Positions 9,552-27,659 of a stretch of DNA of 32,000 bases are shown piece by piece (positions within the stretch are counted from its first letter, which is position 1; each line of letters opens with the position of its first letter). The notes under the pieces are model-generated. The model worked only from the letters and a program-made list of their open reading frames with translations. It was not told the DNA's origin and did not search any database. Where the stretch lies: assembly GCA_021650915.1 (NCBI GenBank), contig CP091279.1, positions 600,001 to 632,000 of the forward strand. The letters are read 5' to 3'. The DNA is from Candidatus Brocadia sp. Its GTDB lineage: Bacteria; Planctomycetota; Brocadiia; Brocadiales; Brocadiaceae. Position numbers and translations under genes: made by a program.

Positions 9552-10544
9552 TTATGCGCAAAGTCTGTATACCAGCAATTCCAGTAATAATTGTGTATTC
9601 ATAGAACTTGTCTTGGTTTTCACATCGGTTTCTAATAAAAGTTCATGGTTTTTTGCAAGATCTTCTACGCTGTACCGTTTCACCTGTTCAAAAAATCGCT
9701 TTGCAAAGAATGGTATGATCTGTAACTCGGAGGCGACCTTTTGCTCGTTCTCGCCTTGTTGTAACAGTTGTTTTGCCCGCCACAATCTTTTAATCTGCCA
9801 TGCCAGCAAACTGATGATCCTCGCCGAATCTTCGCCGTGTGATAACATCTGAATTAAAACTTTCAGAGCCAGCGTTACGTTTCTTTGTGCAACGGCCTCG
9901 GTTAGTTCAAATACCGTGCGATCTCTATCCACGCCCACGAGGGCATCCACATCTCTTTCATCAATGGTGGTTTTCTCACCCAGATAAATCGATAATTTTT
10001 CAAGATGTTTGTCCAAAATCGCCAGATTACCACCGACACTATCAACGAGTTTTTGGGTAGCAGGGGCATTAATCTCTTTTTTGTACTGCCGTGCATGAGC
10101 CTGCACCCAGTTCGGCAGAGAGTGTTCCTTTAACTTTTTACACTCAAGAGAAATACCCACTTTGTCTACAAGGGTTGCCAACTTTGTCCGTTTATCCCAC
10201 TTCTTGCAGATGAGTACCAGATGGGAACGGCTTGCGGGCGTCTGTAAATACTTTTCAAGTATACTCCGGTTTTTATCAATAAATTCGTCTGCTTCTTCAA
10301 CAAGAACCAGCTTGTTTACCCCCGGAAAGAATGGCACCGTCCTTAATTCATCAAACACCACACCGCCGGAAATTTCATCCCCGTTGAATTCAATCAAAGC
10401 TATACTGGGGTCGTTGTCCTTGAGTAGATTCGTCTTTGTCGCCGAAAGCGCCTCGTGAATAAAAAACGCCTCATCTCCAAAAAATACAAAGATGGGAAAG
10501 GTTTTGCCTTTGTTCATCAAGGTCTTTAACTGATAAATATCCAT
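9552..10544 (-). CDS. holA: DNA polymerase III subunit delta
   Basis: 330 aa with the N-terminal pattern PIFVFFGDEAFFIHEA and a helical C-terminal domain typical of HolA. The ATG shares one nt with the cobU stop (TAATG at 10542-10546). Confidence 0.8.
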   Translation of the reverse strand: MDIYQLKTLMNKGKTFPIFVFFGDEAFFIHEALSATKTNLLKDNDPSIALIEFNGDEISGGVVFDELRTVPFFPGVNKLVLVEEADEFIDKNRSILEKYLQTPASRSHLVLICKKWDKRTKLATLVDKVGISLECKKLKEHSLPNWVQAHARQYKKEINAPATQKLVDSVGGNLAILDKHLEKLSIYLGEKTTIDERDVDALVGVDRDRTVFELTEAVAQRNVTLALKVLIQMLSHGEDSARIISLLAWQIKRLWRAKQLLQQGENEQKVASELQIIPFFAKRFFEQVKRYSVEDLAKNHELLLETDVKTKTSSMNTQLLLELLVYRLCA

Positions 10545-11206
10545 TATTTTATCCTCTGGGCAATTCCAGCCACCATAAAATAGACCTCATCCGCTTCACC
10601 GGCAATGATTTGGTTTGCATACCCTGCAATATCCCGGAATTCACGTGATAAGGCATTGTCAGGCACAATACTCAATCCAACCTCATTCGATATCAGAATT
10701 ACATCCGACCCAGACTCACGGCACGCTCGCCTCAGTTTGTGAATCTCTGCAAGGATCACCTGTTGTCTTTCCTGTGGACTTCCTGTCTGAAGCCCGGAAC
10801 AACCAGCCGAGTTTGTCATTTGATTTGATTCTCCTCCCCTGCCGGGAGAGGGTAAATCATACCCTTTTGCAGGAGGTTGAGCGAACGGCTGTCCGCCCCT
10901 ACCACCTGGAACTGTTTCACTGTTTAAAAGCATATTCGTAATATAGAGGGTAATACAATCAATCAAGACAAGGCCTGTCGTACCGCTAATATCCGATACA
11001 ACTTTGTTAACGTGAAAAGGAGACTCAATTGTCATCCAGTTCTGCGGACGCCGTGCACGGTGGATACGAATCCGTTCATGCATCTCGTCGTCTTTAGCCT
11101 CTGCGGTAGCAATATAGACTACATCATTATACTTTTTGGTAAGTCCTTCTGCAAAGGCAGACTTGCCGCTCCGTGCGCCTCCAAGGATAAAGGTTATTTT
11201 GGCCAT
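10544..11206 (-). CDS. cobU: Adenosylcobinamide kinase / adenosylcobinamide-phosphate guanylyltransferase, with an internal low-complexity insertion
   Basis: P-loop ILGGARSGKSAFAE, YIATAEAKDDEMHERIRIHRARRP, LISNEVGLSIVPDNALSREFRDIAG. At 220 aa it exceeds the ~180 aa I recall for canonical CobU. Confidence 0.9.
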   Translation of the reverse strand: MAKITFILGGARSGKSAFAEGLTKKYNDVVYIATAEAKDDEMHERIRIHRARRPQNWMTIESPFHVNKVVSDISGTTGLVLIDCITLYITNMLLNSETVPGGRGGQPFAQPPAKGYDLPSPGRGGESNQMTNSAGCSGLQTGSPQERQQVILAEIHKLRRACRESGSDVILISNEVGLSIVPDNALSREFRDIAGYANQIIAGEADEVYFMVAGIAQRIK

Positions 11207-11290
11207 ATTTCACCTAATTTTACCTATATTTTAATGCCTTTCAATACAATTTAAAACACTATAATAAACGAATTAATATTTTCTACGGGT

Positions 11291-14095
11291 TTATCTGTAA
11301 ATGTGCATAATGCCAACGCATGTCGTTCTGACATTTAAAATTCCTTCACACTCCGATCGGAGCTGTGCCTCGAAGTTGCGGATGAGTAATGAAATTTGTT
11401 CATCCGTTTCTTTTAGGTTTGAGACAGCATGATTTTCTTTCCATTCCTGCTGCATGAGAAGTTCAACATCGCTTTTCATCTGGCTACCCGATAAAATGAA
11501 TTCTTTATATAATTCTTTTTTTATTCCATCTTCAAAGTTGACCATAAAAAGATATCTGACTGAAAAAAAGTCTGGTATTCCATCATTTTTTAATTTGAGG
11601 ACATCTCCAGAAATGGCATCGCTCCTATAATGACTTATTAATGCATCTACTAAAGGATGGCCAACTCCCATAAGATCCATCCCCTTTTTCCTGGTGGCTA
11701 TTTGCCTTGAGAAGGTTACGTTTTCATAGTGTGACGATATGCCGGCGTATTTTTTGAGCGCAGACGGGACTACAATGTTTACAATTTCTCCCGAAGGGAC
11801 GAAACTTCCCCCGAGACGTATAATAGCTTTTTCACAAAATATTTTCAGGTCTTCGAGGGTATATCTTCCTTTAAGCTCAATATAGCTTTCAAGATTAAAG
11901 GTTTTTAAATCCTGTGCTAATTGTCGCAAGGCGTTGCTCGACTCTTTGGCTTGTCTCAGCGCTTCGGCTATTTCTTCTTCTGTCCTTTTGTAATTCTTAT
12001 TGATCAGGGCTTCTTTATACAAATCATTATAGTTTAAAGAGGAGCCGAGAAAGCCCAGAATTTCTGATCTAAAATCCTCCGTTACTTCCCCCGTGACGTT
12101 ATCAATCCTCCCTATCGTTTTTGCTATTTCAAAGAGTTTTTGTTCGAGAATGGAATAAACATCCTCTTCTATCGTTCCTTCGGCAATAAGATTATATACC
12201 TGCGCGGTATCCGTCTGCCCATACCGGTGTATCCTTCCTATCCTCTGTTCAACTGCCATAGGATTCCATGGCAGGTCATAGTTGAAGAGAATCCTGCATA
12301 TCTGTAAGTTTATGCCTTCTCCGCCGGCAGAGGTGCTTATGAGAAATTGAGCCCCGTTTTCGTTCCAGAATGATTCGCACGACGCTATCTTATCCTCAAG
12401 AGGGCCGCCCTTAATTATGGCAATTTTATCATTTGAATAATACTTGCTCAGTTCTTCCTTCAAAAAATAAAGAGTCTCAAGATACTGCGTAAAGATAACA
12501 ATTTTTTCCTTTTCATTCTCCCTTCTGATTTGCTCAATTGCCCTCACCAGCGTGTCAAACTTTCTGTCAGGACCATCGTCCACAAGGCCTATCAACTCTT
12601 TCACCTTTTGGTCTTCATTAGGGATGTTTGCGGGCGCATCAATGATGTCATCGCTGATTTCCTGTGCATCAAGCGCCCAATGGGTTATCTCCTCATCAAA
12701 TTTCGGCCGTTTTTTAAGTTGTTGCTTCAATCGGGCAATATATGCATCCGCATCCGTGTAATCAATAGCCCCCCTCTCATAGGATAAAAGTTCAAAGACG
12801 ATCTTACGCATTTCCTCCTGATATTTTACTATCTGTTTAGAAATATCCTCTCTGGCAGTAAGATTATGCAAGCCACCCTCCATCGCCATTTGTCTCCTCG
12901 CATAAATGGCTAATAATCTTCGCCTTAATGCCTGCTTGATAGCCCTGGGGCTTGACGACATAATTTTCTGAAAGATTGCCATGACAAAACCCACAGCCCT
13001 CTGCTGTTTTGTCGTCTTGTCACTTCCCACACCGGCGGCATTATATCCTTCTTTCAGATATTCTGTTAGCTTCTCATAAAAACGTTGCTCTCTGATCGAA
13101 AGGCTGAATTTTTGAGAATGCACCTTACGTCTCATAAATATCGGATTTCCTTCAACGTCGGTCACTTCCCGTTTTGTCCTCCTTATCATAACCCGTCCAA
13201 GGAGTCCTCTGTGGTCTAGCATTGCTTCGGGGTTTTCAAATAACTGGTCATCAAGCAGTTGTATTAAAGACCAGAATTGATAACCATCCCCCTGATGTGG
13301 AGTAGCTGAGAGAAAGAGCATATCACGGGTTATTCCTTTCAGCTTTTCTGCCAAACGGTAATTTTGTGTGACTTCGATTTTTTCCCCATATTTTTTTCTG
13401 GTGAGATGGTGCGCCTCATCAAAGACGATAATATCCCATTCCGGGCCTTTCATGAGCTTTTCAAGCCGCGCTGGTTTCTTGATCGTGTCAATTGAGGCTA
13501 TCACAAGATTATGCCTTTCCCATGCATGGGGGTTTGCATCTGAGAAATCCAGTCCAAATATGTCAAAATAGATTCTAAAGCAATCCTTCAGCTCGTTACG
13601 CCAATTTACGGTAAGCCCCGCCGGACAGACGATAAGCGCCCTGTCCGCATCCCTTCTCGAAAGGAGTTCTCTTATGATCATACCGGTTTCAATCGTCTTC
13701 CCAAGTCCAACTTCATCCGCAATGAGGAGCCTTCTCCGCCTTGTCTCAACGACCTGGTGGGTCAGCAATATTTGATGCGGAAGCAGGTCTGCCTTGCTGT
13801 TTGACAATTCACCGCCAGAGTTTTCCACGGGGAATTGATACGCAAGTTGTTTTAAGAAAAAATCCACAGGCTTATCAGAAATACCCTTTTCAAATTTCTG
13901 AAAAATATCATCAATTGGCTCAACCATTTCCGGGGGAAATGTCTCAAGAATCCTTTTCCCGTCTTGCTCAAAGGCGACGTCAACCGTGTATTCACCGCCA
14001 CCCTCGCACACCCGGATTACTTCGCCCGCTCCTAATTCGGGACGATATTTCACTTTTACCCTGGTATTCTCTTTTATGATCATACTATTTGTCAT
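11291..14095 (-). CDS. SNF2-family helicase (COG0553-like; BrxHII-like or RapA-like)
   Basis: 934 aa. Motif I LIADEVGLGKTIETG, motif II VFDEAHHL, SATPHQG, and the helicase C block NYDLPWNPMAVEQRIGRIHRYGQ. The ATG overlaps the upstream gene stop (ATGA at 14092-14095). Confidence 0.9.
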   Translation of the reverse strand: MTNSMIIKENTRVKVKYRPELGAGEVIRVCEGGGEYTVDVAFEQDGKRILETFPPEMVEPIDDIFQKFEKGISDKPVDFFLKQLAYQFPVENSGGELSNSKADLLPHQILLTHQVVETRRRRLLIADEVGLGKTIETGMIIRELLSRRDADRALIVCPAGLTVNWRNELKDCFRIYFDIFGLDFSDANPHAWERHNLVIASIDTIKKPARLEKLMKGPEWDIIVFDEAHHLTRKKYGEKIEVTQNYRLAEKLKGITRDMLFLSATPHQGDGYQFWSLIQLLDDQLFENPEAMLDHRGLLGRVMIRRTKREVTDVEGNPIFMRRKVHSQKFSLSIREQRFYEKLTEYLKEGYNAAGVGSDKTTKQQRAVGFVMAIFQKIMSSSPRAIKQALRRRLLAIYARRQMAMEGGLHNLTAREDISKQIVKYQEEMRKIVFELLSYERGAIDYTDADAYIARLKQQLKKRPKFDEEITHWALDAQEISDDIIDAPANIPNEDQKVKELIGLVDDGPDRKFDTLVRAIEQIRRENEKEKIVIFTQYLETLYFLKEELSKYYSNDKIAIIKGGPLEDKIASCESFWNENGAQFLISTSAGGEGINLQICRILFNYDLPWNPMAVEQRIGRIHRYGQTDTAQVYNLIAEGTIEEDVYSILEQKLFEIAKTIGRIDNVTGEVTEDFRSEILGFLGSSLNYNDLYKEALINKNYKRTEEEIAEALRQAKESSNALRQLAQDLKTFNLESYIELKGRYTLEDLKIFCEKAIIRLGGSFVPSGEIVNIVVPSALKKYAGISSHYENVTFSRQIATRKKGMDLMGVGHPLVDALISHYRSDAISGDVLKLKNDGIPDFFSVRYLFMVNFEDGIKKELYKEFILSGSQMKSDVELLMQQEWKENHAVSNLKETDEQISLLIRNFEAQLRSECEGILNVRTTCVGIMHIYR

Positions 14096-14520
14096 GAGGA
14101 TAGGTTGTACCCCGTTTTGTATATGGTTATTCCACGTACATTATAAGCTGTAGTAGAACCAAAGATAAGTTCTATGGGAAGGTTTTCCCCGCGGTATTCA
14201 ACCCAGAGGGAGTCCCCTCTGATAATCCGACCTTTGCACACGATCTGAACCTGTATCAGTTTTCGCACGAAGAGAGACGCCGATGACTGTAAAATCCTGT
14301 GAATTTCTCGTGCAAGAGATTGCCTCTCCTGAGATGCCGTCATGTAAAGCGCTTCTTCGACACCGACAATAAAAAATGACGAACGAGGAGATATGCCATC
14401 AGGGCAATTCCTTATTTCTCTCAGAAAATCTAAAATACCTATCTTTATTTCATTCGGTTCGACACCATCCTCTTTGTAAGGTTTTACGTATCTATACTCT
14501 ACTATTTCGTAACCTGGCAT
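14092..14520 (-). CDS. Hypothetical protein, translationally coupled to the SNF2 helicase
   Basis: The ORF track gives TTG at 14544. ATG at 14520 is preceded by AAGGTG 7 nt upstream, giving 142 aa. I recognise no motif. There is a 4-nt overlap with the helicase start. Confidence 0.6.
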   Translation of the reverse strand: MPGYEIVEYRYVKPYKEDGVEPNEIKIGILDFLREIRNCPDGISPRSSFFIVGVEEALYMTASQERQSLAREIHRILQSSASLFVRKLIQVQIVCKGRIIRGDSLWVEYRGENLPIELIFGSTTAYNVRGITIYKTGYNLSS

Positions 14521-14600
14521 ATATTTGCACCTTACAGATTTCAAATAGACAACATCTTGGTTTTTTGAAAAATTCTTGTATTAACGTAGGTAACATGCAC

Positions 14601-14630
14601 CGTAGAGACAATTCATGAATTGCCTCTACG
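14601..14630. repeat. Short palindromic repeat element (cgtagagacaatt-catg-aattgcctctacg)
   Basis: 13-bp arms with one mismatch around a central catg. Confidence 0.5.
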
Positions 14631-14841
14631 CCCTGTTACAAGGCACTTTCAACTATTGATGTTTTCAAAAAAACCTTAATCCGGCGATAATTTTAAATCT
14701 TGACTTAAGAATTAACACAAAAGATTCGCATCTACCGGGCAAACGAGCTATAAACGCAAATTGACATATTTCACTTTTTACGTGAAAACTACTATTTCAA
14801 AAATACTAGATACTGTCAACTGAATGGCTCATAATAGTATC

Positions 14842-14925
14842 TGTCATTGCGAGGGTGTTTTTTCCCGAAGCAAGCCTTTTTGAGGTGTCCTGGAGATTGC
14901 TTCGGAAAAAACCCTCGCAATGACA
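14842..14925. repeat. REP/MITE-like inverted pair of a ~30-nt module (tgtcattgcgaggg...ccgaagcaa)
   Basis: 14842-14875 and the reverse complement of 14895-14925 match at about 29 of 31 positions with two single-nt indels. They can fold into a long hairpin. Confidence 0.7.
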
Positions 14926-14994
14926 CGTTTTACCTTTTTGGACATACCATAGCGCAGCACAGCCGCAACCAAATTTCCTTTATGAAAGTGGGGA

Positions 14995-15086
14995 GATTGC
15001 TTCGGAAAAGGCCCTCGCAATGACAGTGACCATGCACTTTGATGGCACACACTGCACGTTGTCATTGCGAGTGAAGCGAAGCAATC
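14995..15086. repeat. Second inverted pair of the same ~30-nt module
   Basis: gattgcttcggaaaaggccctcgcaatgaca (14995-15025) pairs with tgtcattgcgagtgaagcgaagcaatc (15060-15086). Both are copies of the module at 14842-14925. Confidence 0.65.
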
Positions 15087-15261
15087 TTTCACTCATAAAA
15101 AACGGTACCTCCTGAAAGGGGCTTATGAAAAAACTTACAAAAAAAAGAAGTTTTTATACAGTAATACTATATCATCCCTTCGGGATTTTTTCACATTTCC
15201 AAAAAAGAGTTTAACCACGAAACACGAAGGTCACGAAGAAAAACTCATCCTAATACTATAA

Positions 15262-18200
15262 TTACACCTCAATCAGGCTTACTATTTTCTGTATGGGTAT
15301 CTGAAACGTAGGATTCCTCTTTTTTAAATATTCCAGGGCAACACGCATCTGTGGGATTGCCTGTTTGAATTCATTCAACCATAACATCAGATTCTCTGAG
15401 GCATTGGCAAGCCCCATAAGATAATGAATGATATCCACCAGCGCTACATTATCAAATCTTTCCTCTTCCATATCGGGAAATAGTTTTAGCTGACGAGGAT
15501 TCCTTGCGTCTTTTTTAAAAAGCGCCTGGAGGTCTTTATACCGTTCGTCAGGCTGTTTTACCTCGTAAGTCCTCCCCCGTTTTGCCCTGCCTTTGCGCAT
15601 AACACCGGCCTTTATCAATCCGTCAATTTCAAGAATACCGCGGGTTGCCTTATGCACCTCGTCGCTCTGTATCTCTTTTCTATCACAAAGACAGGTGAGA
15701 TACACATAGCTTACCGTGTCTATATGCTCAAGTTCTGAGGATAAAGGATGCGCGGTATCGATGAGTTGCTCCACCATCATCCGTATAGAGGCGAGTGCCT
15801 TTTGAAGAGGCACGACATCTCCATTGTGGTCAACTATGGCGCCATAGTGCTTGCTGTATAACTCAAGGCATTTGCCGATGAGGATAATGTTTATATCTGC
15901 GGGTAAGAGCTTTTCGCTTCCATATCTTCCCGACTCTATCATGGCAATCTCTTCCCTTGCCTTTGCACGTATCTCTTGCCTGACGCCTGCCCATGAACGT
16001 TTCTTTGTGTTGCCATTACCATTTCGCTTTTTACAGACATGGATGAGATCGTAGGAGATTGCCTGTTTATCCATGAGATGCAAGGAGCTTTCAGACTCAC
16101 CATGTATGGGGTAGACCGCCTCTATCAAGAAACCCGCATTGCAGACAGATTCAAGGAGCGATTCCCATGCACTCCCTTCTGCATGATGAAAGGTAAAAAC
16201 CACAAGTCCTTGATCTTCGAGGTATTCATGACATTTCTTCCACACATTAGTAAGTCCTTCTTCATAATCTTTTGCAGTTTTACCACGTGTGGGATTTTCA
16301 ACAATTTCCTCCACCTTTGGTGTTAATTCGGGTGAAAAGTGAGGATATGTTTTTGAGAGCAATAGTCTAAGCCAGACATAAAAGAAATCAGCAAGTTCAG
16401 AATAGTTGACATTATCAGCGTATGGCGGATCAGTAATTACAATGTTAAACTTCCCTTCTATTGTGTTACGTGAATTTCCGCAAAATATTTTTGAATCATT
16501 GTTTGCCTCTATAATTTCATTTCTATTCTCACTTATAATTTTGTTCTCGGAATATTTACGGTCGTAAGGTTTATAACAAAATACTTTTCCTTCAATAGCT
16601 TTATTTATGCACTTCAAAAAATTACATTTTCCATAGCTAACGCCCCAAACATTACCCTCTGCAAAAGTAGCTTTCGGTTGAAAGTCATGCCGTGCAAAAA
16701 CTCCTTCAGTTTTATCTGCATCAGATCTATGTCTTGTAAATACGTTGTTACTTTCCAGTGTTGTAAAAAACCCGCTTATCAACATCTCTTTCATTACCTG
16801 ATCCTCTTCCTCACCAATCGCCTTCAGCAATGTGCTCAGGCAGAGGAGTTGTCTCGGATTAAACATCTGATGCCAGTATCTATAATGATGTTCAATAAGC
16901 CTGTGCGTTTCTTGCCCATCGGGAATTGCACTCTTTGGATAAGGAAGCTTTTCTTTTTCCTTTTCCCACCGCTTTTCTACATCCTGATAGCGCTTCAGGT
17001 CTGAGGGATTTATTCTTTTAAAGAACTTCCCGTTGTTTTTGTTTATCATACATGAATGGGTCAGTCTTTTGCTCTTTGTGACCTCATGAAAGAGGTTCTT
17101 TTCAAGCGTTTCACCCGCACACTCAGGACAATAACCCTCTATGGCATACGGCCTGGTTGGCAGCAGTTGCTCCTGTGGCAACTTTCGTATGGAATTGATA
17201 ATCTTGTCCTTTGTGCCGCATGATTCGCAAACAAAAGAGCCCTTTTCGGCAACATTTCCCCTGTTCGGGCTGTAATCTTTTTTACAGGCAGGGCACGAGA
17301 CATCTTCAGGCAAAGCGCCACGATACTGCCAGACGGCATAGCAATGAGGACAGAGTAGGACGGCAAGGGGAACTTTTTTCTTTGTCTTTTTCAGCGATTT
17401 GGCTTCTGCCTCCACATTTTCATGGGAACACCAGGGGCATGCAGCCCTGTGTGTCATGCTATTCCACAACGCCCATCGCTTATGGGACCGCAATTCTCCC
17501 GCTGCATCCTTCGGATTACACACGGTAAGCGCCTTTTCTGCTATCAGGGAAGCAGATTCTATATCCATATCAAACACCTTTTTACAATGCTTGCATTCAT
17601 AATCGGGCACGTACCTGATGGTTGGTGTTTTTTGAGCAATAATATAATTGTTAAAAAGAGTCACTTCCCGTTTACAATTGGGGTTTGTGCAGATGGCGGA
17701 TTTTACCCAAAAGGTGTAGATAATGTCGGCGTCTTCCTTAGCGCTTCTATTATTGGAAGACAACCCCCCTGATCCTCCTTTGTCAAGGGAGACATCGCTG
17801 CTTGCCCCACAGCAGGGACACCCGGTTTTATAGTGGCTGAGGAGTTCTTCTTTTACCGATTTTCCCGTATGGGTCTTGCGCGCCTCAAGTCTTTTGAATG
17901 CATCTCTGAGCCTGTCGATATCAACCGGTTCTACCTCAGTCTTTACGATAAACCAGGCAACGGGATTTAAATCGATACCCGTCACATGACAGCCGAGGCG
18001 CAACGCCTCGACAACGGTTGTGCCACCCCCCATAAATGGATCAAGTATCTTTACGCCGTTTGTATCGGGGTCATTGGTATGATCATTGTAAAACTCCTCC
18101 ATGATGTTTGTGCCGGCAGGCTTCATGGAGGCCAGGAGTATCGCCCTGAATACGCAGGATGCCCTGCGGGCAAACCATTTATGCATTTGATAGATGGGTT

Positions 18201-18276
18201 TGAAGGCATTGCGTTCCGGTACAGCCAGTCTGTTGATTTCGACGATGGGAAATGATTCTTCGATTGCCTTTTTCAT
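15262..18276 (-). CDS. DUF1156-type DNA methyltransferase with multiple Zn-ribbons (PglXI-like, inferred N6-adenine/N4-cytosine class)
   Basis: 1004 aa. The N-terminus PIYQMHKWFARRASCVFRAILLA resembles the DUF1156 signature. SAM motif ILDPFMGGGTT at aa 78-87 and catalytic ITDPPYA at aa 614-620 (nt ~16420-16431). Eight CxxC-type pairs lie between aa ~150 and 390. Confidence 0.85.
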   Translation of the reverse strand: MKKAIEESFPIVEINRLAVPERNAFKPIYQMHKWFARRASCVFRAILLASMKPAGTNIMEEFYNDHTNDPDTNGVKILDPFMGGGTTVVEALRLGCHVTGIDLNPVAWFIVKTEVEPVDIDRLRDAFKRLEARKTHTGKSVKEELLSHYKTGCPCCGASSDVSLDKGGSGGLSSNNRSAKEDADIIYTFWVKSAICTNPNCKREVTLFNNYIIAQKTPTIRYVPDYECKHCKKVFDMDIESASLIAEKALTVCNPKDAAGELRSHKRWALWNSMTHRAACPWCSHENVEAEAKSLKKTKKKVPLAVLLCPHCYAVWQYRGALPEDVSCPACKKDYSPNRGNVAEKGSFVCESCGTKDKIINSIRKLPQEQLLPTRPYAIEGYCPECAGETLEKNLFHEVTKSKRLTHSCMINKNNGKFFKRINPSDLKRYQDVEKRWEKEKEKLPYPKSAIPDGQETHRLIEHHYRYWHQMFNPRQLLCLSTLLKAIGEEEDQVMKEMLISGFFTTLESNNVFTRHRSDADKTEGVFARHDFQPKATFAEGNVWGVSYGKCNFLKCINKAIEGKVFCYKPYDRKYSENKIISENRNEIIEANNDSKIFCGNSRNTIEGKFNIVITDPPYADNVNYSELADFFYVWLRLLLSKTYPHFSPELTPKVEEIVENPTRGKTAKDYEEGLTNVWKKCHEYLEDQGLVVFTFHHAEGSAWESLLESVCNAGFLIEAVYPIHGESESSLHLMDKQAISYDLIHVCKKRNGNGNTKKRSWAGVRQEIRAKAREEIAMIESGRYGSEKLLPADINIILIGKCLELYSKHYGAIVDHNGDVVPLQKALASIRMMVEQLIDTAHPLSSELEHIDTVSYVYLTCLCDRKEIQSDEVHKATRGILEIDGLIKAGVMRKGRAKRGRTYEVKQPDERYKDLQALFKKDARNPRQLKLFPDMEEERFDNVALVDIIHYLMGLANASENLMLWLNEFKQAIPQMRVALEYLKKRNPTFQIPIQKIVSLIEV

Positions 18277-18279
18277 TTT

Positions 18280-18615
18280 CTAGTCGATTGCAAGATGAAT
18301 CTTTATGGCGTTTTCCACTTGTTCAAGGATATCGTTGCCAAGTGTGCCAATATACCTTTTGAGGCGGCTTTTATCTACAGCCCTCATTTGAGGTATCTTT
18401 AATTTAGAGTCATAATCAAGCCTGCTGTCATTTTTCTTTACAAATACCTCAAACGGGAACACCCTTTCAACCTTTGATGAAAAAGGGATTGCCATAACAG
18501 TTTTCAGATGCTTATTAGCTTCATTGCATGATATGATCAAAGCAGGTCTTTGCTTTTTTATCTCAGCGCCAACAGATGGTTCAAAATCTACAAGATATAT
18601 ATCACCACGCTTCAT
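18280..18615 (-). CDS. mazF: Type II toxin, MazF/PemK family endoribonuclease
   Basis: 111 aa beginning MKRGDIYLVDFEPSVGAEIKKQRPALIIS, typical of PemK/MazF. The start overlaps the antitoxin stop by 4 nt, and the stop lies 3 nt before the methyltransferase ATG. Confidence 0.9.
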   Translation of the reverse strand: MKRGDIYLVDFEPSVGAEIKKQRPALIISCNEANKHLKTVMAIPFSSKVERVFPFEVFVKKNDSRLDYDSKLKIPQMRAVDKSRLKRYIGTLGNDILEQVENAIKIHLAID

Positions 18616-18842
18616 TCTTCGAGTCCATCACTGAGAGTGTCTTCCCATTCCTTGTATACTTCATAGTCTTCATTCACTGCCGCTTTATATGCTGCCTCCA
18701 ATTTATTTCTGAGTCTTTTCTTTTCGTCATGCAGTTTCTTTTCCTTAATCGCTTCGGCTATATAGGCAGATTTATTCTTAACTGTTGATAATATCTGCGC
18801 AACATCTTCAGGTAATAATATATTGATTCTTGTATTACTCAT
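18612..18842 (-). CDS. Antitoxin (RHH/MazE-like) partner of MazF
   Basis: Position upstream of mazF. ATG at 18842 has SD GGAGGTG and lies 1 nt after the PglZ stop (TGAtATG). MSNTRINILLPEDVAQIL fits a ribbon-helix-helix beta strand, and the tail is acidic. Confidence 0.7.
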   Translation of the reverse strand: MSNTRINILLPEDVAQILSTVKNKSAYIAEAIKEKKLHDEKKRLRNKLEAAYKAAVNEDYEVYKEWEDTLSDGLEE

Positions 18843-18843
18843 A

Positions 18844-19818
18844 TCACACCTCCAGTACAATCCATGGTGTCAGCATCTCCATCAATGACAGACCTCCATG
18901 CTTATATAATTTCACTGCTGCCTCTCCGGTAGACCTTGTTTTTACGCGCCCCTTGACCATTGCCACCAGCCTTTTGGCATCTATTAAAATATCATCTGAT
19001 GATGGGGTATTGGGGTTTTCCTTAAGATAAGCATATCTGTTATTTCCGAAATATTCATTCAGTTTTTGCGTCTCCTGGCTGCTCCTCACGAAATCCATTC
19101 CCGTACCAAAGAATAGATAACCATGATCGCTGGTAATAATGATCCTGTCTTTCCCTTTTATTTGCTGTACGGTGTTCATCCACGCCGTTTCAAATTGAAC
19201 ATGGATATGCTCAAAGTGATGATCGAATCGCGCTCCGCTATCTGTGTATGTATTGTCAGGAAATGCAGACCAGACAAGCAATGCATTGTTTTCATGGATA
19301 TTGCCTATGCTTTGCGTTGGGCTTCCTGAGTACAGCGCCGTAATTCCCCTGTCAGTGAGTTCCCTTCTGCCGGCAAGTTGTGAAGGCCCAACGCCAGCGC
19401 ATTGCAATTCACGCTCTATAAAGTTCATCGTCTCGCTGGGTATAGCGGCATGAGAACAGCCTATTTCCACAATTTTAAAACCAGATTTTTCAGCAAGTTT
19501 TATCATAATAGGAATCTCACGCAGGGAAAGGCCATCAAAGACAGCGACAGCGGTTTGGCTGTCGGAAAGAACGTTGAATAACTGTTTACTTATATCTGGC
19601 GGTGATAACAATTCTTCATAAATTCTGTCCGCTGAAGCCGCTATCAGGGTCTCAAATCTGTTGATAGACGCTTCGCCTTTTTTGAGATATTCTGTGGGAC
19701 TAACTGCGTGATAATGCGAGGGGCTCCAAATCTCTTCTATAAGCCATTTCTTAATCCAGGGTAGTCTCGGCCCGGCATTGGTTAGTTTTTCCAGTAATGA
19801 GAGATTAAAATATTCCAA
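18844..19818 (-). CDS. pglZ: PglZ-domain (alkaline-phosphatase-like) protein, unusually short
   Basis: 324 aa with four PglZ-like blocks: AVAVFDGLSLREIP, HAAIPSETMNF, IIITSDHGYLF and YKHGGLSLMEMLTPWIVL. The TTG start directly abuts the upstream TGA. Confidence 0.7.
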   Translation of the reverse strand: MEYFNLSLLEKLTNAGPRLPWIKKWLIEEIWSPSHYHAVSPTEYLKKGEASINRFETLIAASADRIYEELLSPPDISKQLFNVLSDSQTAVAVFDGLSLREIPIMIKLAEKSGFKIVEIGCSHAAIPSETMNFIERELQCAGVGPSQLAGRRELTDRGITALYSGSPTQSIGNIHENNALLVWSAFPDNTYTDSGARFDHHFEHIHVQFETAWMNTVQQIKGKDRIIITSDHGYLFFGTGMDFVRSSQETQKLNEYFGNNRYAYLKENPNTPSSDDILIDAKRLVAMVKGRVKTRSTGEAAVKLYKHGGLSLMEMLTPWIVLEV

Positions 19819-22476
19819 TCAGCCACCCTTTTTATTTACTTCAAGCGCTATATCCAGAGAATAATCTGCGCCAGGAATCGATGGAAGGGACTCGATCTGC
19901 TGCTCTATCTGGGATTTTGAGAATCGGCCGGTTTTTGTAATGGCTATTTCTGCCGTAACGTCTCCCTGCCCGCTGAGATTCCCTCTGATCGATCCGGGAA
20001 GTGTGCTTAAATCTCCTATGTTAGTTTTCTGATAGAATAGCTTATAAATAACCGTTATTATCTCTGCAGCCTGATATTGCTGCAACCTGAAAGCAGTCTC
20101 CTCCCTGAGACTCCCGATGCTTGTCCTGGGAGGTATTTTTAAGGAAACGATTTCTTTTTTGGGACATGTACACGTTTCCTGGCCACATCTTTGACAACGA
20201 ATAGGCTGAGGAATGGGTTCTTCGCATGCACAGGTCTTTTGCCCGCAACGTGGACAAATTTGTGGCGGAGCAGTTGGGGATGGAGGCTGTTGTTCTGAAA
20301 AGGGAGAAACAATCTTTGCGTTGAAAAGCTCTGTTTCGGAAAGATCGGGATTCCTCCTGCAATAATTACCTCTACTGTGTTGTATCCCGATAGTTCCTTC
20401 CCTGCAAAGTTCCCGAATTGCCGCTGAAACCGCACGAACATGAGCTGGAACAGGGAAGCCTAGTGTTGCCCTGTATTCTGCATCGATATCCTTAACGAGT
20501 TTCTCTTTTATATGGTCAAGCCGTGATTCGAGATGTTCCTTTATCGTCAGTAAAGGGAAATAATCCTGATTAAGGGATTCAAGCGCCTTATCTTTCGTAA
20601 ATTCTTTTGGCAAAGGCTCCAGTTCGATTTGGTCATCTCGTGCATTTTCACCATATTTTATCCAATGAACAAAGACCAATCCCGCTCTTTTAATCCGTTC
20701 AATAATGAATGATTGATCTGCCCTTGCTATCCTTTCGAAATCAGACTTTTTAGAAGCGCTTCGTGTCCCTTCTGCAAGCTTCTTCGCAGCGATTACCCTC
20801 GTTGCCCACTTTAACGTGTCTCTGTCGGATAGTAATTGAAATTCAGCATCCTTTGGTTCGAGTACCAGGATAAGGTTTCTTACGTCCATACCATAATAAA
20901 TGTTGTGCCTTTCCTCCTGAGTCAAACGCCTTCCGGCAATTACATATCGCAGGCGGTTTTTATCAAAGCCATTGAGGAGTTGTTTTGTTTGATCAGGGGA
21001 GTCAAATACAACCGTACCCGATGTCTCCCGAAAAATTTCGGATTTAACAAGATCGATAATAAAATCCTTGGCGGCATATTTGTAATCAAGAGACCGATAT
21101 TCAACCCTTGCTTCAGGTTGTTCTTCGATATCAAAGGAGAATCTGTCTCCATCAGTATGAAAATAAGAGGCATATTTCTGGAAATTCATTATCGCCTGGT
21201 CAAAAGCATTAATATCTGTCATTGGAGAAAGGATATCTGTTAAAAGCGTATTGCGGGAAGATCCTTTTTCCGATTCAAATCCGGTAAGTGAATAAAGGAG
21301 AACGGCAGAAGCGAATCGGTTCGCTATCGGGACTTTTGGCCTGAGTTCTTCCATATTTTCGATTGCCCTGTTTATAAGGTCTCCTCCGACATCCAAATCT
21401 CTCAGCATGATAATATTCGCTTTGTCTTCTAAAGAGGCGTCGGCCGGCGTGATGATGTCGTTTGTGCTATGAGTGAGCCTAACAAGATTTCCGAGAAATG
21501 AAAGGGCGCCTCTCACATTCTGAAAACCCCCTCTTGCCGGTATCTTTTTTAAAATAATATCTATCAAAGATGGAGAAAACGGATATGTCTCATGAAATCT
21601 GCTTTTTAACTCATTCGCATCTAAAGAGACATGTCTTTGCCATATGTTTACAAAACTATCGATAACAGGCGAAGGAGATTTATTGTTGAATTCGAGGTAA
21701 TTTTCAAACAAACGGTGTAATATTACCTTGCACTGGTCTTTTGTATTATCAAATTTAACCATAAAGGGTTTAACCCGTTTTAACGTACTCCCCGGTTCTT
21801 CCCTATCACCGTAAAGGCTCGCAAAGAGTGTAATCTGCTTCGATCTATTACTGAATTCGGAAATCATCTGCAAAAAAGCGATATTTTGCGCCTGAATAGC
21901 AGGGTCGGCGATGACTTTTATACCCTGTTCAAGTTCATCAAGAATAAGAATAAGTTTATGATCACCAATAGCTTCCTTAAATTCAGGAAGGCTAAGATGG
22001 GTTATTTTGTCCGGAGCTTTTTTACCAAACTTCTTGTATATCAAGTCCCAGACATATTTATAGGGGATGTCGGTAAACTTGTTTATAATAACGACTATGT
22101 CATCAGGGATAACGCAGTTGAGATTATTACGCTTAAGCCAGTTTTGCGCAATGGCGGTGTGACTAAAAAGATTGTAAATGAAGAGGAGGAGGTGTGATTT
22201 ACCACTCCCTTTTAAACCCTCGAAAAGGAACAGTCCCGATGAGTTTTTCTTTGTAGAGAACCTTACGTTTATTTGTTCGATAACTTTCAGAATGTCTGAT
22301 GTTGGATATGTGAGGCTGAAAAATAATTCCGGATCAGCTTCAATTTTCTTCGCATCTTGGGAATTTAAATTAGCCAGATCAATAATCCCTTCAATGCCCT
22401 CTTCAGAGATAGTTTCGAATCTTGGTCTTAGATACGACGAATAACCCATACTATTCTCTATTTTAAAATTTACCAA
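19819..22476 (-). CDS. brxC: DUF499 / BrxC(PglY)-like AAA ATPase with C-terminal duplicated Cys motif
   Basis: Walker A EGLKGSGKSHLLLFIYNLF (DUF499-like GKSH) and Walker B LILILDELEQ. Cys motifs CPRCGQKTCAC and CQRCGQETCTC. The track start is TTG 22476, overlapping cobS by 14 nt. The first ATG, at 22449, lies 13 nt after the cobS stop. Confidence 0.8.
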   Translation of the reverse strand: MVNFKIENSMGYSSYLRPRFETISEEGIEGIIDLANLNSQDAKKIEADPELFFSLTYPTSDILKVIEQINVRFSTKKNSSGLFLFEGLKGSGKSHLLLFIYNLFSHTAIAQNWLKRNNLNCVIPDDIVVIINKFTDIPYKYVWDLIYKKFGKKAPDKITHLSLPEFKEAIGDHKLILILDELEQGIKVIADPAIQAQNIAFLQMISEFSNRSKQITLFASLYGDREEPGSTLKRVKPFMVKFDNTKDQCKVILHRLFENYLEFNNKSPSPVIDSFVNIWQRHVSLDANELKSRFHETYPFSPSLIDIILKKIPARGGFQNVRGALSFLGNLVRLTHSTNDIITPADASLEDKANIIMLRDLDVGGDLINRAIENMEELRPKVPIANRFASAVLLYSLTGFESEKGSSRNTLLTDILSPMTDINAFDQAIMNFQKYASYFHTDGDRFSFDIEEQPEARVEYRSLDYKYAAKDFIIDLVKSEIFRETSGTVVFDSPDQTKQLLNGFDKNRLRYVIAGRRLTQEERHNIYYGMDVRNLILVLEPKDAEFQLLSDRDTLKWATRVIAAKKLAEGTRSASKKSDFERIARADQSFIIERIKRAGLVFVHWIKYGENARDDQIELEPLPKEFTKDKALESLNQDYFPLLTIKEHLESRLDHIKEKLVKDIDAEYRATLGFPVPAHVRAVSAAIRELCREGTIGIQHSRGNYCRRNPDLSETELFNAKIVSPFSEQQPPSPTAPPQICPRCGQKTCACEEPIPQPIRCQRCGQETCTCPKKEIVSLKIPPRTSIGSLREETAFRLQQYQAAEIITVIYKLFYQKTNIGDLSTLPGSIRGNLSGQGDVTAEIAITKTGRFSKSQIEQQIESLPSIPGADYSLDIALEVNKKGG

Positions 22477-23278
22477 GTAACAAAAGACTTAATAAAAACA
22501 CCAGTTCAGCAATCTCATTGGTAGCGCCCAGGGTATCTCCCGTCATCCCACCAATTTTCTTTTTAATATACCAAATCCAACCGAGAGTGAAAATAAGCAT
22601 TATTGCAAATATAAAAAATCCACCCAACCCAAAAAAATACCAGAATAAGACAACAGGAAAAACTGACAAAAAGATCACCTGTATTCGTGTAGTATCTTTC
22701 GTAATAAAACTCCCCGTACCCGATTCATTCCGGGCATATGTCGATATCCCTGCGGCGCAGACCTGCGCCCATCTTCCTGCAACAGGCATGATCAACAAGG
22801 CAACACATTTATTAACTAGGACCGGGGTGGTAACGCAGGATTCACATGGTATGCTGATACGAAAAGGGGAACTATGAATCGTGGAGATTTCCCCAATGCT
22901 CAGCAAACAGGCATATTTGAGTCCGATCATACCTATCAGCCCGATAGCCCCAAAGCTGCCGATGCGGCTATCCTTCATGATTTCCAGGCGTTTTTCCTTA
23001 TTCCAGCCACCCCAAATACCGTCACAAGTATCTGCAAGACCGTCGAGATGCATTGCACCGGTAATCATAATAAATATCAGCACAATCAAAGCGTCTGCAA
23101 TAAGGGAAGGGAAAAAGCAATACAACGGCAGATACGCAAGACAGAGAAAAACGCCTATACACAAACCCACCACGGGAAACCAATACACCACATGGCAACA
23201 ATCCCTTGGTTTTATCCGATCCTCCCTGTCAAAGGGGATAATAGTTAAAAACTTGAGTGCCCATAAAAAGGTATTCAT
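22463..23278 (-). CDS. cobS: Adenosylcobinamide-GDP ribazoletransferase (cobalamin synthase)
   Basis: 271 aa polytopic membrane protein with LKFLTIIPF and HLDGLADTCDG motifs. Confidence 0.9.
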   Translation of the reverse strand: MNTFLWALKFLTIIPFDREDRIKPRDCCHVVYWFPVVGLCIGVFLCLAYLPLYCFFPSLIADALIVLIFIMITGAMHLDGLADTCDGIWGGWNKEKRLEIMKDSRIGSFGAIGLIGMIGLKYACLLSIGEISTIHSSPFRISIPCESCVTTPVLVNKCVALLIMPVAGRWAQVCAAGISTYARNESGTGSFITKDTTRIQVIFLSVFPVVLFWYFFGLGGFFIFAIMLIFTLGWIWYIKKKIGGMTGDTLGATNEIAELVFLLSLLLLGKF

Positions 23279-25564: not shown

Positions 25565-26506
25565 TTACGTTCCCTTTCTTTCCTCTGAGATATTCCTGTT
25601 TCGTACAACATCTATTGCTTGTTCAAAGCTGCCAACCTCAGTTATTATTAACGTGTTTGGGAGAGCAATACTTACGGCAGAGTTCCTGGCAACGAGGATT
25701 TCATCGATGAAATGCAATTCCCTTAAAACAACTTCTATTTTATCATCAAGAAATTCTGAGGGAATTGTCCTGCCCTGGCCGTCCAGACCGCCGGTTACTA
25801 CAATATTTGCAGGGACAGATAGCTTGGTTAGCATAGCATAATAACAGAGGGCGGCCGCAAGCCCGGCACTCTGTAAGTTACATCCGGAAGCTATTTGCGT
25901 TACGCCTTCTTCAAGGAAGTATTTTATATGGGTTATCGTGGGTATACGTAGATTGTTAATGTGTTTCGAATGGACAAATTGGTTTATCCAGATAACAACA
26001 GGTGAAAAAATATCTTCAGGTAAAATTGCTGTGGTGTCTTGTAATACCGTTGTGTCTTCTGAGAATATACATTTCAAGCAGGTCGAAAAGCTTATCTTCG
26101 AATGATAGGTGAGTAGCGTTCTCACCTCACCCACTTTTGGCATTGGTTTATATATCGGATTCGCAAGCTTATCATCCAGAAGGATGTCCAGAATACTATC
26201 TTCCCAAGTACCTTTTTCGTGGGGAGGAGATTCGTTGATATAAGTTCTAATGTGATCCCTCAGTGCTATCCGTTTATTAAGGTTCAGATAGCCTGGGATT
26301 TTATTAAGAGCGTATTGGATAGCCGTTAATACGTCTGATATCGTTGATTCCTGTAGGCCAAAATCATCTTTTTCCAACTCGGAACATACGAATTCATTTG
26401 GACACATCTTGCAGTATTCAATCCCTTTATCACATTTATTGAGAATGTCGTCCAGATATTGAATATAGTTACCAATTTTCAGATGTTGCTTGGGACTAAA
26501 ATTCAT
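25565..26506 (-). CDS. Protein with C-terminal Lon-protease-like (S16) domain and a Cys-rich N-terminus
   Basis: The block QSAGLAAALCYYAMLTKLSVPANIVVTGGLDGQGRTIPSEFLDDKIEVV parallels Lon PSAG...MTGE...G.V.PIGG..EK (Ser-Lys dyad). N-terminal Cys cluster CDKGIEYCKMCPNEFVC. No AAA+ module is present. Confidence 0.55.
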   Translation of the reverse strand: MNFSPKQHLKIGNYIQYLDDILNKCDKGIEYCKMCPNEFVCSELEKDDFGLQESTISDVLTAIQYALNKIPGYLNLNKRIALRDHIRTYINESPPHEKGTWEDSILDILLDDKLANPIYKPMPKVGEVRTLLTYHSKISFSTCLKCIFSEDTTVLQDTTAILPEDIFSPVVIWINQFVHSKHINNLRIPTITHIKYFLEEGVTQIASGCNLQSAGLAAALCYYAMLTKLSVPANIVVTGGLDGQGRTIPSEFLDDKIEVVLRELHFIDEILVARNSAVSIALPNTLIITEVGSFEQAIDVVRNRNISEERKGT

Positions 26507-26604
26507 AAGAATCGTCTAAATTACGCAATTAAAAGGCCGATAATAAACCTGTTTTTGCCGATAGGTGAATAAGATAAAATTGTCTTAAATAACGCAGGCC
26601 TGGA

Positions 26605-26835
26605 TTGAAAAATTTCATGAAGTATAAAAGAATTGTAATGTCAAAAAGTAGTTACCAAGTAAATAATTTTACCAAAAAAGACTGTGAAGTATTAAATGAC
26701 TCCTTTTTGGAATATTATGCACTCTGTGCGTTACGAAAAAACTTAATGCGGGCTGTAGAATTAGCTCAGCATAACAACCTGTTATATTCTCGCAATACTA
26801 TCTATGCATACAAAGGAATGAAATTACATCATTAA
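26605..26835 (+). CDS. Hypothetical small protein (weak call)
   Basis: 76-aa ORF from TTG (ATG at 26617). The translation looks helical, but there is no SD and no recognisable motif. It lies in AT-rich DNA. Confidence 0.25.
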   Translation: MKNFMKYKRIVMSKSSYQVNNFTKKDCEVLNDSFLEYYALCALRKNLMRAVELAQHNNLLYSRNTIYAYKGMKLHH

Positions 26836-27054
26836 ATCAATAGTTATTTCGAGAAACAATTTGTGACCAACTCTTGTTATGATGAATGTATCTGCTATGA
26901 ACCAATATATCGGTATGCATATTTTAGATGATGAAAAAGGATTTCAAGAATTTAAAATATGGATAAAACATATGAATTATAAACTATTTCTTGAACATAG
27001 TCATTCAAATGAATATTACAGAAGTAAACAAATAAATATTGAATAAGAAGGAGC

Positions 27055-27228
27055 ATGTCTTGCATGAAAAGGTACTTTAAGGATGATTGCTCGCATTGTA
27101 ACGAATATCCCCATGAGTGTGATGTCTGTTCTAGTGAAATAAAGGCATCTATACATTTTAAATCTCGCCATCGCAGTAACAAAAAGCGTGATTTTAAAAA
27201 AGATGATAAAATAGTATACAACAATTAA
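27055..27228 (+). CDS. Sub-threshold 57-aa Cys/His-rich ORF (possible Zn-finger peptide)
   Basis: Not in the ORF track (under 60 aa). Translation: MSCMKRYFKDDCSHCNEYPHECDVCSSEIKASIHFKSRHRSNKKRDFKKDDKIVYNN. It has two CxxC pairs plus a HxxxxH. SD AAGGAG at 27048-27053 lies 10 nt before the second ATG (27064). Confidence 0.3.
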   Translation: MSCMKRYFKDDCSHCNEYPHECDVCSSEIKASIHFKSRHRSNKKRDFKKDDKIVYNN

Positions 27229-27407
27229 TTTGTTGTGTACAAGGGTAATCCCGAAGTATACAAAGACCATCTGTTGCTACTTTACGAATAGAGTATAGAT
27301 TTCTCATTATTTTATTTGAAGAACAGTATCTTATACTAAAAGCTATCATACGAAATGTCGAAAGATTCTGAGTAACTATGTGTCCTGAGAAGAAAGGAAT
27401 AAATAAT

Positions 27408-27659
27408 ATGGTTATGGTTATTAATGAAAAGAATATGCAAAATGAGTTTGTCTGTCCCCATTGTAAAGGTTATACTTTTATATTCATTGGGCTGCAAAGA
27501 CAAAAAGGATTATTCGAAAACCACGAGTTGTGGCGCTGTAAAAGTTGTCATAGTACGTTTGCTAAAGAAACGATAGATGTGAAAAAATCAATGGAAAATG
27601 AATCTTTTAATAAGAGAGCATTTCAATATTACTGCAAAAGCAGATTTACTAACGGATGA
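27408..27659 (+). CDS. Small Zn-ribbon protein
   Basis: CPHCKG...CKSCHS. The track start is 27378. ATG 27408 has AAAGGA ~9 nt upstream. The stop overlaps the MBL hydrolase start by 4 nt. Confidence 0.55.
   Translation: MVMVINEKNMQNEFVCPHCKGYTFIFIGLQRQKGLFENHELWRCKSCHSTFAKETIDVKKSMENESFNKRAFQYYCKSRFTNG

Follow-up and report, generated by a model that had tools for sequence, protein, structure and literature searches.

The mazEF cassette and its junctions

We analyzed a window of 32,000 nucleotides (nt) from Candidatus Brocadia sp. (CP091279.1, positions 600,001-632,000) in which a toxin-antitoxin (TA) pair of the MazE/MazF type lies within a phage-defense operon, between a gene for a PglZ-like protein and a gene for a DNA methyltransferase. 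An earlier note on this DNA had described the pair as wedged between these two genes without intergenic room, and the tight same-strand junctions are as described there. The junctions were checked base by base on the minus strand, together with a table of open reading frames (ORFs). The cassette comprises the following features.

18612..18842, minus strand: MazE-like ribbon-helix-helix (RHH) antitoxin of 76 amino acids (aa), named from an NCBIfam match below its cut-off and from the overlap with the toxin
18280..18615, minus strand: MazF/PemK endoribonuclease toxin, 111 aa, named from Pfam PemK_toxin and PDB matches
18847..18853, minus strand: GGAGGTG, the Shine-Dalgarno (SD) sequence of mazE, built from the last pglZ codons

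The stop codon of the pglZ-like ORF (TGA, 18846-18844, minus strand) is followed by a single spacer base at 18843 and then by the antitoxin ATG at 18842-18840, 1 nt past the stop as the earlier note had placed it. The final pglZ codons are CTG GAG GTG TGA, and the SD that had been located within the pglZ coding end is present as GGAGGTG at 18853-18847. Downstream, the antitoxin stop (TGA, 18614-18612) and the toxin start (ATG, 18615-18613) share the 4 nt ATGA at 18615-18612, and the toxin stop (TAG, 18282-18280) is separated by AAA from the methylase ATG at 18276-18274, so that the 4-nt overlap and the 3-nt gap claimed previously are both found. One coordinate has to be moved. The pair had been ended at 18860, which is an upstream in-frame TTG, whereas the proper antitoxin start is the ATG at 18842. 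Starting at the TTG would give a protein of 82 aa; gene calls give 76 aa, and homology between cassettes begins at ATG 18842.

The toxin matches Pfam PemK_toxin (PF02452) over residues 2-107 of 111 with an E value of 9e-30 and 103.5 bits (cut-off 23.1). In a PDB sequence search its entire length aligns with MazF proteins of solved structure, among them Mycobacterium tuberculosis MazF9 (5HJZ), Staphylococcus aureus MazF and Bacillus subtilis EndoA, with E values from 1e-16 to 3e-12. In the alignment with MazF9, Arg23 of the toxin (in KKQRPALII) pairs with the arginine of the QRPA motif, and the position of the MazF9 threonine is a serine in the toxin (IPFSSK and VPVTSN, respectively); catalytic roles are carried over from other MazFs. 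The catalytic positions of B. subtilis MazF are R25 and T48. An annotated protein with 100% identity exists in Candidatus Brocadia sp. genomes (MazF protein search). The antitoxin matches NCBIfam NF050104 (TA_MazE_antitoxin) over its full length with an E value of 2e-5, at 24.9 bits against a cut-off of 65; it has no Pfam match at E<=0.01 and no PDB match by sequence search. mazE and mazF are kept together in loci L081, L083, L161 and L162-165. The PemK_toxin match, the alignments to MazF structures, the overlapping upstream antitoxin ORF and purifying selection on both genes (see below) bear out the earlier identification as a MazEF pair, and we regard the cassette as a genuine, predicted type II TA pair of the MazE/MazF type rather than a product of chance ORFs.

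The host operon

The cassette sits in a string of genes with the following other features.

22463..23278, minus strand: cobS (cobalamin-5-phosphate synthase), upstream housekeeping flank (Pfam CobS, 1.4e-57)
19819..22449, minus strand: DUF499-type AAA+ ATPase, BrxC/HmaC-like (DUF499_antiphage and HmaC matches)
18844..19818, minus strand: stand-alone short PglZ-domain protein, 324 aa (PADLOC PglZ, NCBIfam BREX_PglZ_4)
15262..18276, minus strand: DUF1156 N6-adenine DNA methyltransferase, HmaB/PglXI-like, 1004 aa (Pfam N6_N4_Mtase and DUF1156)
14545..15261, no strand: non-coding insert of 717 nt between methylase and p150, with inverted and direct repeats like those of a miniature inverted-repeat transposable element (MITE)
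14092..14544, minus strand: p150, a conserved protein of 142-150 aa (conserved in 83 loci; the L161 homologue matches PF26277, DUF8076)
11291..14095, minus strand: SNF2-family helicase without nuclease fusion, HmaA/BrxH/DrmD-like, 934 aa (Pfam SNF2-rel_dom and Helicase_C)
10544..11206, minus strand: cobU (adenosylcobinamide kinase), downstream housekeeping flank (NCBIfam PRK05800, 2.4e-55)

The gene order is ATPase, PglZ, MazE, MazF, methylase, p150, helicase, with housekeeping genes on either side: the operon is inserted in a string of cobalamin genes (window 22447-22465 and 11206-11293), and all genes lie on one strand. Between the cobS stop and the ATPase ATG there are 13 nt, and cobU begins 84 nt past the helicase stop; no integrase was found at this cobS-cobU-flanked island. 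The ATPase probably starts at ATG 22449 (876 aa, as in the gene call for L161); the TTG at 22476 chosen by the ORF finder would mean 885 aa. Its profile matches are weak (NCBIfam DUF499_antiphage 3.9e-13, PADLOC HmaC 1.5e-10), and those of PglZ cover the C-terminal part only (PADLOC PglZ 3e-6, NCBIfam BREX_PglZ_4 1.9e-6). The methylase matches PADLOC HmaB (9e-47) and PglXI (3e-29) and NCBIfam DUF1156_antiphage (1e-43), and the helicase matches PADLOC HmaA (2.5e-101) and BrxHI (4e-101), with SNF2 and Helicase_C as the only domains detected.

The stand-alone PglZ holds a conserved position in 144 loci, and at least 120 homologues of 316-335 aa are listed among 500 matches, several with precomputed PF08665. 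The ATPase and pglZ ORFs are in frame, and we considered a single protein made by read-through of the TGA between them; hundreds of homologues of about 324 aa are separately called, and this candidate was rejected. At that boundary the ATPase stop TGA is followed without spacer by the in-frame TTG start of pglZ (…GGC TGA TTG GAA…, window 19816-19821), which we take as a further putative junction of the termination-reinitiation type in the same operon.

The earlier note had spoken of a defense operon and of bacteriophage exclusion (BREX) loci. A phage-defense operon with pglZ and a methylase, related to BREX, is what we find, but canonical BREX (types 1-6) is not: the BREX PglZ models, with cut-offs of 140 and 400, reach no more than 26.8 and 21.7 bits, respectively, PADLOC BrxC is matched with an E value of 0.006 only, and no BrxA, BrxB or BrxL gene was found in the operon by PADLOC and NCBIfam profile searches. 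The NCBIfam models DUF499_antiphage, DUF1156_antiphage and DrmD-like likewise all score far below their equivalog cut-offs. A closer relative is the Type-3 BREX-related (BR) system, for which Rakesh & Krishnan (NAR 2026, PMC12839542) give as components an ATPase of the DUF499 type, PglZ as a separate protein, a DUF1156 methyltransferase that in some cases has two Zn fingers, iSTAND, which is present in 82% of Type-3 BR taxa, and a helicase that resembles BrxHII but has no nuclease; their Supplementary Data S1 covers roughly 569 taxa with the system. The window has the same gene set, which overlaps Hma of PADLOC, including the PglZ of about 324 aa and a Zn-ribbon-rich insert in the methylase; p150 is probably the small iSTAND component. 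As judged from these profiles and gene order, the host operon is a Type-3 BR/Hma-like system and not canonical BREX.

Methylase and p150 are 5-30 nt apart in most homologous operons, compared to 717 nt in the window. The repeats of the insert lie at 14834-15033 and are of two kinds, inverted ones (TGTCATTGCGAGGG...CCCTCGCAATGACA) and a direct repeat of 34 nt whose copies stand 100 nt apart; the insert is also present in L083 (8245-8964). A related element of 113 nt lies between the ATPase gene and pglZ in Candidatus Brocadia sapporoensis (L001, 3302-3414). The 717-nt insert would uncouple translation of p150 and the helicase. Elsewhere in the window, a stretch at 26500-27500 has a low GC content (0.30-0.34, compared to about 0.43 elsewhere) and no ORF of at least 100 aa.

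Occupancy of the pglZ-methylase junction

Homologous loci were found with an alignment of 27 PglZ homologues, 80 from GTDB genomes and 80 from metagenomes. The five-gene core (ATPase, PglZ, methyltransferase, p150, helicase) is collinear across many phyla in tblastn searches with the window proteins. We counted as an insert more than 400 nt between core genes.

ATPase to PglZ: insert in 1 of 144 loci
PglZ to methyltransferase: insert in 65 of 138 loci
methyltransferase to p150: insert in 7 of 83 loci
p150 to helicase: insert in 12 of 72 loci

The pglZ-methylase junction is the preferred slot for accessory cassettes in this system. Of 128 non-redundant junctions of this kind, 64 measure 6-60 nt and are empty, and an insert occupies the other 64. 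When the inserted ORFs were clustered and cluster representatives compared with Pfam, about 50 of the 64 occupied junctions were found to carry TA pairs or lone RNase or Fic toxins. The inserts fall into the following classes.

RHH plus PIN (VapBC-like): 27 loci
MNT and/or HEPN/HepT: 7 loci
Schlafen-AlbA2 proteins: 8 loci
Fic/DOC: 4 loci
other PIN pairs: about 6 loci
DUF433 plus DUF5615: 2 loci
HicBA: 1 locus
AbiE-like pairs, beside VapBC: 2 loci
NYN: 1 locus
DUF3800: 3 loci
IS200 transposase: 1 locus
no recognized type: a few loci

A MazEF pair between pglZ and the methylase had seemed unfamiliar at first reading; with about half of 128 operons occupied, it is one instance of a general hot spot. 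Among the homologous operons surveyed, MazEF at this junction is confined to the lineage of the window. A tblastn search with the window MazE and MazF gave no match in the 80 loci from GTDB genomes, and the relatives described below came from the metagenome scan and the MazF protein search.

Other junctions carry occasional cargo. ParDE-like genes lie between the ATPase gene and pglZ in L021 (9367-9953). Between p150 and the helicase gene there are DUF433/DUF5615 (L018, 5031-5698), TumE (L105, 5374-6037), a Zeta toxin (L087, 10400-11214) and a YhcG PD-(D/E)XK nuclease (L014, 7491-8600). IS200-type transposases are found between p150 and the helicase gene in L012, L016 and L125 and between pglZ and the methylase in L137.

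Turnover of cassettes among the closest islands

We compared five island variants whose flanks are 83-99% identical and whose junction content differs.

L083, 98-99% identity to the window: MazEF, same junction as the window apart from one codon
L161, 88% nucleotide identity over 7.2 kb: MazEF, same junction, adjoining mutS, not cobS (L161 1-1170)
L081, 94-97% identity: MNT, then MazEF
L001 (Candidatus B. sapporoensis) and L082, about 90% identity: MNT-HEPN
L084/L085, 83-94% identity: empty junction of about 9-12 nt

In DNA alignments, homology between islands runs through GGAGGTGTGATATGAGT, breaks immediately past TGAtATGAGT, and resumes at GCAAT(C/A)GAAGA, which is methylase codon 3-4. The same junction string GGAGGTGTGATATGAGT stands before the MNT gene in Candidatus B. 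sapporoensis. Because homology resumes only at codon 3-4, each cassette brings its own methylase start. L081 has an intermediate arrangement. It contains, at 6959-7925, pglZ, MNT (the orphan antitoxin of MNT-HEPN), a 47-nt spacer, mazE with a GTG start, and mazF, MazEF having replaced HEPN. The L081 string before mazE, AGAGGTGTAATGTGAGT, is the same as the string at the pglZ end and MNT start at 15 of 17 positions, and a deletion between these two repeats would give exactly the junction of the window.

The earlier note proposed a survey of homologous islands for the pair and allowed that it might be a recent strain-specific insertion. That MazEF is lineage-specific holds, and the nearest other islands carry MNT-HEPN or nothing. 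That it marks a single-strain event does not hold, because the pair is present in islands that have diverged by 12% and at two genomic locations. The window and L161 differ at synonymous sites by 0.14 in mazF, 0.24 in mazE and 0.44 in pglZ; these values come from small counts and hint that the cassette may have spread between islands after the islands themselves diverged.

The methylase also varies among these islands. At about residues 450-650 the window and L083 are 26-60% identical, compared to 96-100% elsewhere in the island, and similar dips are seen in L081 and L161. This looks like a swapped target-recognition region, and therefore near-identical islands probably methylate different motifs.

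Selection and long-term retention

The MazEF pair is kept in four related islands with ratios of nonsynonymous to synonymous divergence (dN/dS) of 0.07-0.31. The ratio is 0.09-0.31 for mazE and 0.07-0.26 for mazF, compared to 0.10-0.13 for pglZ, which places both genes under purifying selection at the level of pglZ.

A VapBC-like pair in a distant clade of the system provides a longer record. An RHH gene and a PIN gene of 167-195 aa occupy the pglZ-methylase junction in 27 loci (L039-L077 and others, e.g., L055, 10972-11741), and the hosts include Ignavibacteria, Bacteroidota, Verrucomicrobiota, Proteobacteria, Binatia and others. Distances between PIN proteins correlate with those of PglZ, ATPase, methyltransferase and helicase (Mantel r 0.87-0.89, p 0.0005, kinship ignored), and comparisons of core proteins with each other in this clade give r of 0.91-0.97. 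Because PIN co-diverges with the core genes, the pair has long moved together with the operon, and its behavior in this clade is that of a fixed additional gene pair. We considered whether the PIN protein is exclusive to Type-3 BR operons and rejected this, since all three sampled homologues (56-60% identity) belong to stand-alone TA loci.

Relatives of the MazEF pair in other contexts

A type I hsdM gene lies 8 nt downstream of a mazF whose product (P0124; L162-165) is 95% identical to the MazF of the window. The 70 nt before the hsdM-linked mazE are a degenerate pglZ 3' end, 90% identical to that of the window (L162 4704-4773 and window 18912-18843). Cassette and pglZ fossil together occupy L162 4704-5340, and likewise L163-L165. 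With this fossil in front of its mazE, the hsdM-linked copy was therefore exported from a Type-3 BR island. N6_N4 methylase genes lie 12 nt downstream of relatives at 77-78% identity, with a ResIII helicase following in one case, and five further relatives at 72-77% identity are in ordinary stand-alone TA loci. In all, a DNA methyltransferase gene is found 3-13 nt downstream of this MazEF subfamily in 4 of 10 contexts surveyed, and the other 6 have no methylase. The link between MazEF and methylases is thus recurrent and not obligatory, because stand-alone relatives occur. We rejected the notion that the subfamily always guards methylases: only these 4 contexts fit, and one of them derives from a Type-3 BR island.

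The methylase neighbors raise the possibility that the cassette is primarily a regulatory module, in which MazE, alone or with MazF, and translational coupling set expression of the methylase and downstream genes, much as controller (C) proteins do in restriction-modification (RM) systems, with toxicity being secondary. The four methylase contexts (the Type-3 BR DUF1156 methyltransferase, type I hsdM and two N6_N4 methyltransferases) and the lack of an SD of its own for the methylase in occupied junctions (see below) are what such a module would lead one to expect. We nevertheless consider it very unlikely, as the hsdM-linked copy is secondarily derived from a Type-3 BR island and 6 of 10 contexts have no methylase. 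Moreover, cassettes that do not bind DNA (Fic, Schlafen, HEPN) share the slot, and no operator-like repeat or promoter was detected upstream of mazE.

Expression and translational coupling

Empty and occupied junctions differ in how the methylase start is served. Of 64 empty junctions, 48 have an SD-like motif ahead of the methylase start, whereas only 13 of 63 occupied ones do, by a rough count that ignores kinship. In empty junctions the methylase SD is supplied by the CTGGAG... end of pglZ, the region that serves mazE in the window. The 20 nt before the window methylase ATG (…ATCGACTAGAAA) contain no SD-like motif, and because it has no SD of its own we infer that the methylase is translated by ribosomes that terminate at the mazF stop. 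That inserts favor one position, that the SD encoded in pglZ is reused and that the methylase has lost an SD of its own all suggest that cassettes are integrated into expression of the operon and are not merely parked in it.

Classical type II TA loci are autoregulated from a promoter of their own. The pair in the window has no intergenic promoter, with 1 nt between the pglZ stop and the mazE start, and the tight same-strand junctions without intergenic room make co-expression with the operon the natural reading, in line with the earlier note. An independently expressed unit would need a promoter and operator inside the pglZ 3' end, giving an autoregulated transcription unit that perhaps includes the methylase and helicase genes. 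That 70 nt of pglZ 3' end moved with the cassette to the hsdM locus and are still 90% identical speaks for such a unit. Scans for sigma-70-like promoters and terminators around the pair in the window found nothing above shuffled controls, and there is no coding-strand sigma-70-like site in the last ~250 nt of pglZ, given that the Planctomycetota promoter consensus is poorly known. The same scan of the hsdM locus L162 also gave nothing above shuffled controls, and the best promoter-like site there lies upstream of the fossil rather than within it. In addition, L001 has the identical pglZ 3' end in front of another cassette, MNT-HEPN. Independent expression of the pair is, on balance, improbable.

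Discussion

We postulate that the window contains a functional type II TA cassette that was captured at the pglZ-methyltransferase junction of a Type-3 BR operon and that, co-transcribed with and coupled to its neighbors, acts as a second-line abortive or addiction module. We give this reading an even chance of being correct. Capture of the RHH MazE and MazF/PemK cassette would have occurred by recombination at the junction. The cassette makes use of the SD built from the final pglZ codons and takes the place of the methylase's start region. mazE, mazF and the methylase would then be read off the operon transcript and translationally coupled, with the methylase, for want of its own SD, probably dependent on ribosomes terminating at the mazF stop. 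In this arrangement mazEF could form a second layer on top of methylation-based defense. Shut-off of host expression by a phage, destruction of the operon transcript, or loss of the island might each allow the labile MazE to decay, and the freed MazF would cleave RNA, leading to arrest of the cell (abortive infection) or to death of segregants. Killing of segregants would stabilize the island, which itself lacks a toxic restriction nuclease.

Several observations weigh against this proposal. The cassette appears dispensable for the core system, because half of the homologous operons have no insert. There is no exclusive tie to the defense system, because the MazEF and VapBC subfamilies also occur as stand-alone loci. 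TA modules are intrinsically hard to lose, and both retention and co-divergence can be explained without a role in defense. The promoter scan is weak evidence on a promoter inside the pglZ coding region, given how poorly the Planctomycetota consensus is known, and the Mantel and SD statistics ignore kinship among loci.

A rival reading is that of a purely selfish hitch-hiker, an addictive MazEF that landed in a permissive, well-expressed junction and is lethal to delete, with no input into defense or regulation. Chromosomal TA loci that stand alone are common in both subfamilies, turnover of cassettes in close relatives is rapid, IS200 transposases and MITE-like repeats also land in junctions of the operon, and half of the operons have no insert between pglZ and the methylase. 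A hitch-hiker would not be expected to favor one junction out of four so strongly, and RNase-type toxins, with a shared orientation and tight coupling, are strongly overrepresented among the inserts. The VapBC pair has also been kept over ~50% protein divergence and in many phyla, and cassettes embedded in Hma systems usually proved to be defense systems when tested (7 of 9; 10.1101/2024.01.29.577857). We consider a purely selfish element unlikely, though by no means far-fetched.

The second-line module that we favor has counterparts in other methylation-based defense operons. The anticodon nuclease PrrC is encoded in the EcoprrI type I RM locus (PMC3710099), and DarTG2 lies between hsdS and hsdR (PMC12255303); as proposed for MazEF here, a toxin module inside a methylation-based defense operon provides a second line once the first is neutralized. 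It is the RM proteins that keep PrrC inactive, whereas the window MazF has a dedicated antitoxin gene, and this argues against a need for PrrC-like masking of MazF, if the predicted antitoxin is what it seems. The target of DarT is DNA, whereas that of MazF is RNA.

The pair is also recognizably of the canonical type. mazEF of E. coli, the EndoAI/EndoA pair of B. subtilis (ndoAI-ndoA) and MazEF9 of M. tuberculosis share with it the antitoxin-first order, the overlap, the MazF fold family and the conserved arginine, and the antitoxin of the B. subtilis pair is of the RHH type, like MazE in the window. The window pair differs from these in having no intergenic promoter or operator of its own and in the coupling of its start to the pglZ stop and of its stop to the methylase start.

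Genes embedded in defense operons have been described before, as the earlier note stated for BREX loci (PMC12839542; 10.1101/2024.01.29.577857; PMC12255303; PMC3710099). Embedded genes are present in 62.7% of Hma systems, nearly always in the same orientation (Payne et al. 2024, 10.1101/2024.01.29.577857). That survey of guilt by embedding found accessory genes between the core genes of Hma, BREX and DISARM and of type I RM systems; here, 50% of the pglZ-methylase junctions are occupied. It dealt with a three-gene Hma and with larger embedded systems (Septu, GmrSD-like, ABC ATPase plus nuclease), and MazF/PemK of the kind in the window is unmentioned there. HEPN (with MNT), PIN and Schlafen are named as backup effectors inside BREX and BR loci in PMC12839542, and MazF/PemK is not among the effector superfamilies in the accessible portions of its text and supplements. 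The portions of the supplements available make no mention of MazF, PemK, antitoxin, RHH or Brocadia, and a preference for the pglZ-methyltransferase junction, swapping of cassettes between near-identical islands and coupling junctions were not found described in the accessible parts of the paper. Embedded defense and TA genes in Hma, BREX and RM operons are thus already known, and the present analysis adds to them a preferred junction, reuse of the SD encoded in pglZ, and a natural allelic series in Brocadia.

A bolder version of our proposal is that the pglZ-methylase junction is a dedicated effector slot, with interchangeable RNase-toxin cassettes (MazEF, VapBC, HEPN-MNT, HicAB, Schlafen, Fic) serving as the abortive arm of the system. 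Release of the toxin would be wired to the BR machinery, synthesis of the methylase would be gated by translation of the toxin gene, and VapBC would be a fixed seventh core gene pair in one large clade. Reliance on toxin cassettes would then be tied to the Type-3 BR helicase, which has no nuclease fusion. We regard this as a rather doubtful speculation.

We know of no agreed killing mechanism for BREX-type systems. Literature of 2024-2026 proposes embedded nucleases as back-up effectors, and the locus in the window would add MazF to that list. The near-identical Brocadia islands form a natural series (empty, MNT-HEPN, MNT plus MazEF, and MazEF) on which the contribution of an embedded TA pair to defense, to stability of the island or to methylase dosage could be tested. 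For annotation, small TA pairs in Hma and BR operons are to be treated as expected features of these operons and not as mis-assemblies.

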